Below, one piece after another: positions 18,984-19,089 of a stretch of 64,000 nt of DNA. This DNA comes from a virus. The stretch spans positions 11,371 through 75,370 of the IMG/VR virus record IMGVR_UViG_3300047472_000102. The stretch is one strand, 5' to 3'. Within the stretch, counting starts at the first letter, position 1; every line of letters begins with the position of its first letter. The notes beneath the pieces were generated by a model. That model was not told the origin of the DNA and did no database searches. It saw only the letters and a list, made by a program, of their open reading frames with translations. Made by a program: the position numbers and the translations under genes.

Positions 18984-19089
18984 GGGAAGATTGGCTGACG
19001 TGGTAAGGCCAAAGGTTCATACCCTTTGAGTACTAATGCTTCTGGGATGCGGTATTAGTCTATTGTTCGTTCAACTCGAACTCTTCTCT
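18984..19089 (+). tRNA. Atypical tRNA(CAT) (Met/Ile2-like) with 37-nt variable region and no encoded CCA
   Basis: Acceptor GGGAAGA/TCTTCTC, D arm with GTGGTAA, AAAGG-TTCATAC-CCTTT, T arm GTTCG-TTCAACT-CGAAC, variable hairpin ACTAATGCT/GGTATTAGT. Confidence 0.75.

Follow-up and report, generated by a model that had tools for sequence, protein, structure and literature searches.

A tRNA(CAU)-derived element with an inserted hairpin in the tRNA cluster of an uncultured N4-like phage

Introduction

Long variable arms are, by textbook account, reserved for the tRNAs of Leu, Ser, Tyr and Sec. Natural tRNA variable regions span 4-24 nt, and the arms of natural class II tRNAs measure ~13-24 nt. The variable loop is the one tRNA site able to hold a long arm without breaking the L-shape. 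Among the tRNA-like stable RNAs of phages, RNA1 and RNA2 of T5 are known to accumulate, and the species 1 and 2 RNAs of T4 are further examples. The T5 RNAs lie in the T5 tRNA region (AY543070, 30501-30644 and 32959-33083), where they are annotated as 'tRNA-like stable RNA with unknown functions', and both fold as tRNA frames with extra arms. Allo-tRNAs divide the 12-bp acceptor branch in an 8/4 or 9/3 split and combine long variable arms with G73 or U73 and unexpected anticodons; some of them are found in alphaproteobacterial phage tRNA clusters (Mukai et al., PMC5389517). Here we describe a phage element in which a tRNA(CAU) body carries a hairpin in its variable loop, and set it beside these systems.

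Results

Anatomy of the element and comparison with described systems

The element lies in a window of 64,000 nt, the whole stretch of DNA analysed, which corresponds to bases 11371-75370 of an IMG/VR virus record (IMGVR_UViG_3300047472_000102) that is complete at 75,370 bp and has direct terminal repeats. Its parts, with the evidence used to place them, are:

18984..19089, + strand: whole tRNA(CAU)-derived element, 106 nt, a cloverleaf plus an extra arm, with the discriminator T as its final base (fold, ARAGORN without the hairpin, covariance model R2)
18984-18990 / 19082-19088, + strand: acceptor stem, 7 bp with one G.U (sequence and fold)
18993..19010, + strand: D arm with G18 G19 and A21 (sequence, alignment and fold)
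19011..19027, + strand: anticodon arm, a 5-bp stem (19011-19015 / 19023-19027; three A-U and two G-C pairs) with loop UUCAUAC (sequence)
19028-19064, + strand: variable region, 37 nt (sequence and fold)
19032..19063, + strand: 32-nt insert relative to canonical tRNA(CAU) genes, holding a 9-bp hairpin (MAFFT)
19065..19081, + strand: T arm, a 5-bp stem with loop UUCAACU, in which G53-C61, T54, T55, C56 and A58 are present (sequence, fold and alignment)

The intact cloverleaf of a tRNA(CAU)-type gene, as described in a sequence-only reading of this DNA, was recovered in full: a 7-bp acceptor stem, a D arm, a 5-bp anticodon stem closing a 7-nt loop with the anticodon CAT at 19018-19020, and a 5-bp T stem closing a 7-nt loop. 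The near-invariant residues U8, G18 G19, A21, U33, G53, T54 T55 C56, A58 and C61 are all kept, and position 14 is G where A is near-universal in tRNAs. The D stem can be drawn in two registers, either as 4 bp without nucleotide 26 or in the canonical form with one G.G mismatch and C26. Sequence and fold also bore out the 37-nt variable region with its 9-bp hairpin and 10-nt loop, and the missing CCA: the discriminator T at 19089 is followed by TGT, whereas the five neighboring tRNAs called by ARAGORN (5/5) all encode CCA. Pairing probabilities are at least 0.87 in the acceptor stem, ~0.9 in the D stem, ~1.0 in the hairpin and ~0.94 in the T stem, with only 0.17-0.39 in the A-U-rich anticodon stem. 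The minimum free energy of the whole molecule has a modest z-score of -2.0.

Like the class II tRNAs, of which the phage has its own example in tRNA-Leu(UAA) at 21024-21107, the element raises a paired extra arm from the variable region. It differs from them in its CAU anticodon, a class I identity in place of that of Leu, Ser, Tyr or Sec, in its class I body sequence, and in the size of the arm, which has 9-11 bp and a 10-nt loop and takes up 37 nt in all, so that the variable region is longer than the natural range given above. With T5 RNA1 and RNA2 the element shares a place in a phage tRNA cluster and an architecture of acceptor, D and T arms around an extra structured middle. The T5 RNAs have enlarged anticodon arms, whereas the element has a normal 7-nt anticodon loop, and BLAST found no sequence similarity between them; the resemblance is thus one of kind and not of family membership. 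The allo-tRNAs are likewise noncanonical, with a long variable arm and U73 allowed, but the element keeps the standard 7/5 arrangement of acceptor and T stems in place of the 8/4 or 9/3 split, and an eighth acceptor pair would be a U-C mismatch.

An independent natural case was seen in the tight tRNA array of a 333-kb uncultured phage, where a 94-nt tRNA-Met(cat) (L136:3677-3770, identical in L137:1466-1559, minus strand) has a 23-nt base-paired variable arm, A73, CCA and a 1:72 mismatch. ARAGORN calls this gene and Rfam scores it at 40.2 bits; it adjoins a normal 77-nt tRNA-Met(cat), and the same phage has a CUA (amber) suppressor-type tRNA. It is like the element in lying in a phage tRNA array and in its CAU anticodon, UUCAUAC loop and paired extra arm in the variable region, and unlike it in having A73, an encoded CCA, an initiator-like 1:72 mismatch and an arm of only 23 nt, and in being called by both detectors. 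No sequence similarity between the two arms was evident when they were read side by side.

Detection and chance controls

The element is not called by ARAGORN at default settings, and Rfam RF00005 gave no match at the gathering threshold, at E<=10 on 301 nt or at E<=1 on 4.8 kb. In silico deletion of the hairpin, leaving the real flanks in place, led ARAGORN at default thresholds to call a tRNA-Met(cat) with its ends exactly at 18984 and 19089. As a chance control, the window's 587 hairpins with 8 bp or more were removed one at a time and a tRNA call sought; one removal in 587 rescued a call, and it was that of the element's own hairpin. Twenty dinucleotide shuffles of the window produced one rescue in total. 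Applied to 1.2 Mb of other phage loci, the procedure gave one distinct spurious rescue, a 'tRNA-Leu(cag)' in L012, L013 and L015 that was judged a false positive, being G+C-rich with no tRNA fold. Taken together, the detector rescue and the chance controls establish that the tRNA(CAU) cloverleaf with an inserted hairpin is a real structure and no chance fold. Under relaxed detector settings, which the sequence-only reading had suggested as a check, the intron mode of ARAGORN returned a 'tRNA-Ser(act) with a 13-nt intron', an artefact of the lowered thresholds. Genes of this kind escape standard tRNA finders silently.

Identity of the tRNA body

The comparison set for the body came from an IMG/VR pattern scan and comprised 15 distinct phage tRNA(CAU) genes of ordinary appearance that share the loop UUCAUAC; it mixes initiator-like and elongator-like genes (L117, L107 and L106 are examples). 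In a MAFFT alignment the element matches these canonical genes end to end, and the sole block difference consists of 32 columns inside the 5-nt variable loop. The A15:U48 tertiary pair, G18 G19, U33, A37, G53-C61 and the T-loop consensus are kept. The likeness covers the acceptor, D, anticodon and T arms, with an identical anticodon loop and GG/CC stem base, while the differences are the 32-nt insert, the lack of an encoded CCA, G14 and a shifted or mismatched D stem. The canonical genes are called by both Rfam and ARAGORN, whereas the element is called by neither. Its U73 alone is not damning, since the normal-looking L107 has U73 followed by CCA. Position 1:72 is paired, and the body is therefore of elongator type (Met or Ile2) and not of initiator type.

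Sixteen canonical phage tRNA(CAU) genes, all of class I, were used to build covariance model R2, which matched the element over its full length with 21.6 bits (E 0.0018). Class I tRNAs score 45-81 bits under this model and true class II tRNA-Leu genes 27.2 and 29.9 bits, which indicates that the low score of the element comes mainly from the insert and not from a ruined body. By sequence comparison, the element is a class I, elongator-type tRNA(CAU) gene of the UUCAUAC phage kind with a palindromic 32-nt insert.

The loop itself, with U32 and C38, recurs in many unrelated phage tRNA(CAU) genes (L116, L127 and other IMG/VR loci). Phage tRNAs that have an E. coli-type initiator acceptor stem and a 1:72 mismatch also carry UUCAUAC, not the cellular CUCAUAA.

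The hairpin insert

The hairpin arms (19032-19040 / 19051-19059) form 9 bp, including two G.U pairs, around a 10-nt loop (19041-19050), and two more pairs past a bulged U extend the hairpin to 11 bp. A second copy of the hairpin sequence was not found in the window, nor was the sequence found by DNA pattern searches of IMG/VR or the JGI metagenomes, and the insert matches no Rfam family. The two departures from a perfect DNA palindrome are transitions, and both leave G.U pairs on the + strand. That both are G.U-compatible is a faint hint of constraint at the RNA level, with about one chance in ten of arising otherwise by rough reckoning. A kissing-loop partner for the 10-nt loop was sought and discarded, as the loop complement occurs in the window at chance level only.

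Splicing, partner genes and codon demand

The sequence-only reading had listed a removable insert among its possibilities, an idea that found no support. The insert has neither a group I intron core nor an Rfam intron match, inspection by eye shows no bulge-helix-bulge motif, and a search of the phage for an RtcB ligase came up empty. PF05731 (Ro60) was not found in the 75-kb complete record by a search that did pick up the control genomes; a YrlA-type Y RNA is accompanied by a Ro60/Rsr gene in the same genome. Neither PF01171 (TilS) nor a CCA-adding enzyme was found in the phage, and because CCA is also unencoded, any CCA would depend on the host. Among 27 large ORFs, AUA accounts for only 6% of the Ile codons, which points to little need for an Ile2 tRNA. 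No partner gene in the phage points to a role as decoy, in nuclease resistance or in mischarging, and the roles of this sort proposed earlier (toxin decoy, nuclease resistance, mischarging) found no direct support.

Genomic setting

The source phage is placed among the N4-like podophages (Schitoviridae) by its portal protein, family A DNA polymerase, closest cultured relatives and an ORF of more than 1,560 aa, which we take to be the start of an N4-type virion RNA polymerase. The nearest cultured relative is Agrobacterium phage OLIVR1 (70% portal identity), and further close ones are Erwinia phages Ea9-2, Frozen and phiEaP8 and Sinorhizobium phage ort11. The element lies on the + strand within a 3.5-kb early region that has five ordinary tRNA genes by ARAGORN (Pro-UGG, Asn-GUU, Arg-UCU, Leu-UAA and Gln-UUG) and small genes including an Acb2/Tad1 anti-CBASS sponge, an HU-like protein and a DnaA-C-like HTH protein. 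The features around it are:

17123-17425, - strand: Acb2/Tad1 hairpin-domain ORF, 100 aa (E 4e-16), of the anti-CBASS/Thoeris sponge type, adjoining the tRNA cluster
18759-18791, + strand: strong intrinsic terminator, a 9-bp G+C-rich stem and T run, inside the mechanical ORF 18708-18998
18804..18998, + strand: 64-codon ORF with a GAGG ribosome-binding site and ATG at 18804
19093..19133, + strand: strong G+C-rich hairpin with no U tract, 4 nt past the element (fold of 18940-19150)
21182-21249, + strand: second uncalled tRNA-like element, between tRNA-Leu and tRNA-Gln (Rfam 32.8 bits in a whole-record search; R2 42.3 bits)

The final five codons and the stop codon of the 64-codon ORF fall inside the acceptor strand and D stem of the element. 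This ORF matches no Pfam family, and its longer reading (18708-18998) has no tblastn counterpart in the tRNA regions of four relatives; the true ORF, if there is one, begins at ATG 18804 rather than at 18708. Downstream, the DnaA-C-like gene starts 62 nt past the element. The hairpin at 19093..19133, which is absent from the list of a consensus terminator scan, may act as a 3' end marker or a transcript stabiliser, as its predicted fold and position suggest. The Acb2/Tad1 anti-defence gene is 1.6 kb from the element.

The second tRNA-like element at 21182-21249 has D and T arms closely like those of tRNA-Pro at 17913, a 3-bp stub as anticodon arm, and no CCA.

Search for relatives

IMG/VR and the JGI metagenomes, searched with exact and gapped DNA patterns, yielded no copy of the element. 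When the whole element and its 5' half were queried by BLAST against 50,697 phage records, T5 included, neither gave a match, and a single-sequence covariance model (R1) found no copy in 80 related loci or 32 related whole records. The element is thus a singleton among the collections searched. Its flanking genes are unique to the source phage: P0001, P0002 and a 151-aa ORF yielded no usable relatives, and P0002, recorded also on two other contigs, had none beyond the source phage. A contig search with a 533-aa structural protein returned relatives at 53-66% identity only. The tRNA sets vary widely among the relatives, and turnover is therefore taken to be fast.

In OLIVR1 (MT234338), positions 2000-2072 (L083:2000-2072) hold an uncalled 73-nt tRNA(CAU)-like fold that is CCA-less and has U73, an 8-bp acceptor stem and two U-U mismatches in the anticodon stem (Rfam 29.4 bits, R2 52 bits). 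It is overlaid by the annotated CDS gp06 (hypothetical protein, 1990-2091), an annotation that is probably wrong. We rejected this stretch as an orthologue of the element, as unrelated canonical tRNA(CAU) genes are closer under R1 (34.5 and 31.1 bits, against 19.4 for the OLIVR1 stretch) and the shared UUCAUAC loop is widespread.

Several other unusual tRNA-like elements were seen in the relatives. A long-armed family of 92-96 nt occurs in three N4-like relatives (L092:758-853 in G017, L093:723-817 in G013 and L094:588-679(-) in G003), with mismatches or a bulge in the acceptor stem, irregular anticodon loops (ttc, tctc, tc) and 8 compensatory pairs among the three sequences; covariance model R3 finds it in these 3 of 33 related records. 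The element is not a member of this family. Two tRNA frames, L084:663-764 (OLIVR1 34162-34263) and L091:549-662(-) (G025 23548-23661), score 34.5 and 42.9 bits with Rfam and have normal acceptor, D and T arms with 45-59 nt in place of the 17-nt anticodon arm; both lie mid-genome, off the tRNA cluster. In OLIVR1, L085:475-551 (40274-40350; Rfam 47.2 bits) has an 8-nt anticodon loop, for which ARAGORN gives the four-base anticodon ccta. In the N4-like relative G002, ARAGORN reports a permuted (two-piece type) tmRNA just downstream of tRNA-Pro (L088:2669-3146) with the tag peptide ANDDAFAPQLRLAA; homology with the RNA-rich region of the window was considered and dropped, as no similarity was found.

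Discussion

We tentatively favor, at somewhat less than an even chance, the reading that the element is made, retains the arm and functions as a tRNA-shaped RNA that decodes inefficiently if at all. By analogy with the tRNA-like stable RNAs that phages keep in their tRNA arrays, it more probably belongs to that type, and it could serve as a decoy or competitor for tRNA-binding factors, or have no role yet. Transcription would occur together with the early tRNA and small-gene cluster, RNase P would cleave at 18984, the 3' end would be trimmed near 19089 with any CCA coming from the host, and an unspliced tRNA-shaped RNA would persist with its 11-bp side arm. We infer the expression, the processing, the retention of the arm and the lack of decoding; the last is suggested by the missing CCA, G14, the irregular D stem and the weak anticodon stem. 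The stable-RNA reading is favored because all four stems pair, removal of the hairpin restores a tRNA-Met(cat) call, there is a single insert, the core contacts are kept, the hairpin changes are G.U-compatible, CCA is encoded only in the neighbors, and the phage lacks RtcB, Ro60, TilS and a CCA-adding enzyme. It also has precedents in the T5 RNAs, the long-armed family of the three N4-like relatives and the 21182-21249 element. Against it stand the singleton status, a folding z-score of only -2.0, a body intact enough for ordinary decoding, the occurrence of U73 in the normal-looking L107, and the fact that a recent insertion into a working gene, leaving a plain relic, would look identical.

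Such a relic, a once-working phage tRNA(CAU) disabled by a palindromic insertion and CCA loss, unselected and heading for deletion, is possible, though on balance we consider it rather unlikely. It would fit with the finding of nothing similar in any relative or collection searched, with the loss of a CCA that five of five neighbors encode, and with G14 and the irregular D stem. The cluster contains a second, truncated tRNA-like remnant (21182-21249), a tRNA(CAU)-like stretch of OLIVR1 is likewise uncalled and CCA-less under a CDS annotation, and the differing tRNA sets of the relatives speak for fast turnover. The well-paired insert, which had been taken as an argument against simple decay, weighs little here, because an insert born as a palindrome pairs at once. 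What counts against a relic is that all stems are still paired while the four bases past the acceptor stem are unlike ACCA, as neutral decay should also mismatch the stems; that both hairpin substitutions are G.U-compatible on the transcribed strand; and that a complete 75-kb phage genome has little space for junk. At the other extreme, the element might be a working long-armed tRNA that is processed, receives its CCA from the host, is charged with Met (or with Ile via lysidine from the host TilS) and decodes, with an arm that may hinder tRNA-directed nucleases or toxins. Engineered tRNAs with hairpin aptamers in the variable arm stay translation-active, according to one report (PMC7590224), which would agree with this idea. 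So would the intact cloverleaf with U33, A37 and the elbow contacts kept, the placement of the arm at the class II arm site, the 94-nt tRNA-Met(cat) of the 333-kb phage (L136:3677-3770) as an independent natural example, the U73 of L107, and an Acb2/Tad1 anti-defence gene 1.6 kb away. Nevertheless, it seems unlikely, as CCA is unencoded while the real tRNAs of the phage all encode it, G14 replaces A, the anticodon stem is weak and no copy exists in the relatives searched. MetRS and IleRS use A73, and the discriminator here is U; the 37-nt variable region exceeds the natural ~4-24 nt; and AUA makes up only 6% of Ile codons in a phage without TilS.

Two further explanations concern the fate of the transcript. 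As a cis-acting tRNA-like processing signal, the element would provide an RNase P/RNase Z site that punctuates the early transcript between the 64-codon ORF and the DnaA-C-like gene, and the released RNA would have no role. The layout is suggestive, as the closing five codons of ORF 18804-18998 and its stop codon lie within the element, which ends 62 nt before the next gene and is directly followed by a strong hairpin. tRNA-like transcript punctuation has a precedent in the t-elements of organelles, according to one report (PMC1920247). This explanation is nonetheless very improbable, as a cut at 18984 would take off the stop codon of the upstream ORF, the anticodon loop and 9-bp extra arm would not be needed for it, and the 64-codon ORF, having neither a homologue nor a Pfam family, may be unreal. 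An intron-bearing tRNA, from which the 32-nt insert is excised and the halves re-ligated to a normal 74-nt tRNA(CAU), is scarcely credible. Removal of the insert does restore the default ARAGORN call. However, where tRNAs of bacteria and phages have introns, these belong to group I, interrupt the anticodon loop and are at least ~200 nt long, whereas the insert is a plain hairpin in the variable loop, with no visible bulge-helix-bulge, no Rfam intron match and no RtcB in the phage.

The weight of the finding is limited because it concerns a single unconserved sequence that is known only as DNA. The element belongs with the extra-armed tRNAs and tRNA-like RNAs of phage tRNA arrays, and its arm is of a length unusual on a class I body. 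It is doubtful that the element works as an elongator tRNA(CAU) with an 11-bp side arm under selection, so that Met or Ile-AUA decoding, or a decoy of it, goes unrecognised by host tRNA-directed nucleases and toxins. In that case no natural decoding tRNA known to us would have a longer variable arm, and the element would stand at one extreme of an as yet undescribed tendency among phages to equip class I tRNAs with class II arms. If the RNA is made and kept whole, it would add, from a small lytic phage, a class I tRNA body whose extra arm is very long. Examples of this sort are relevant to how phages remodel tRNAs, be it for escape from tRNA-cutting defences or as tRNA mimics.
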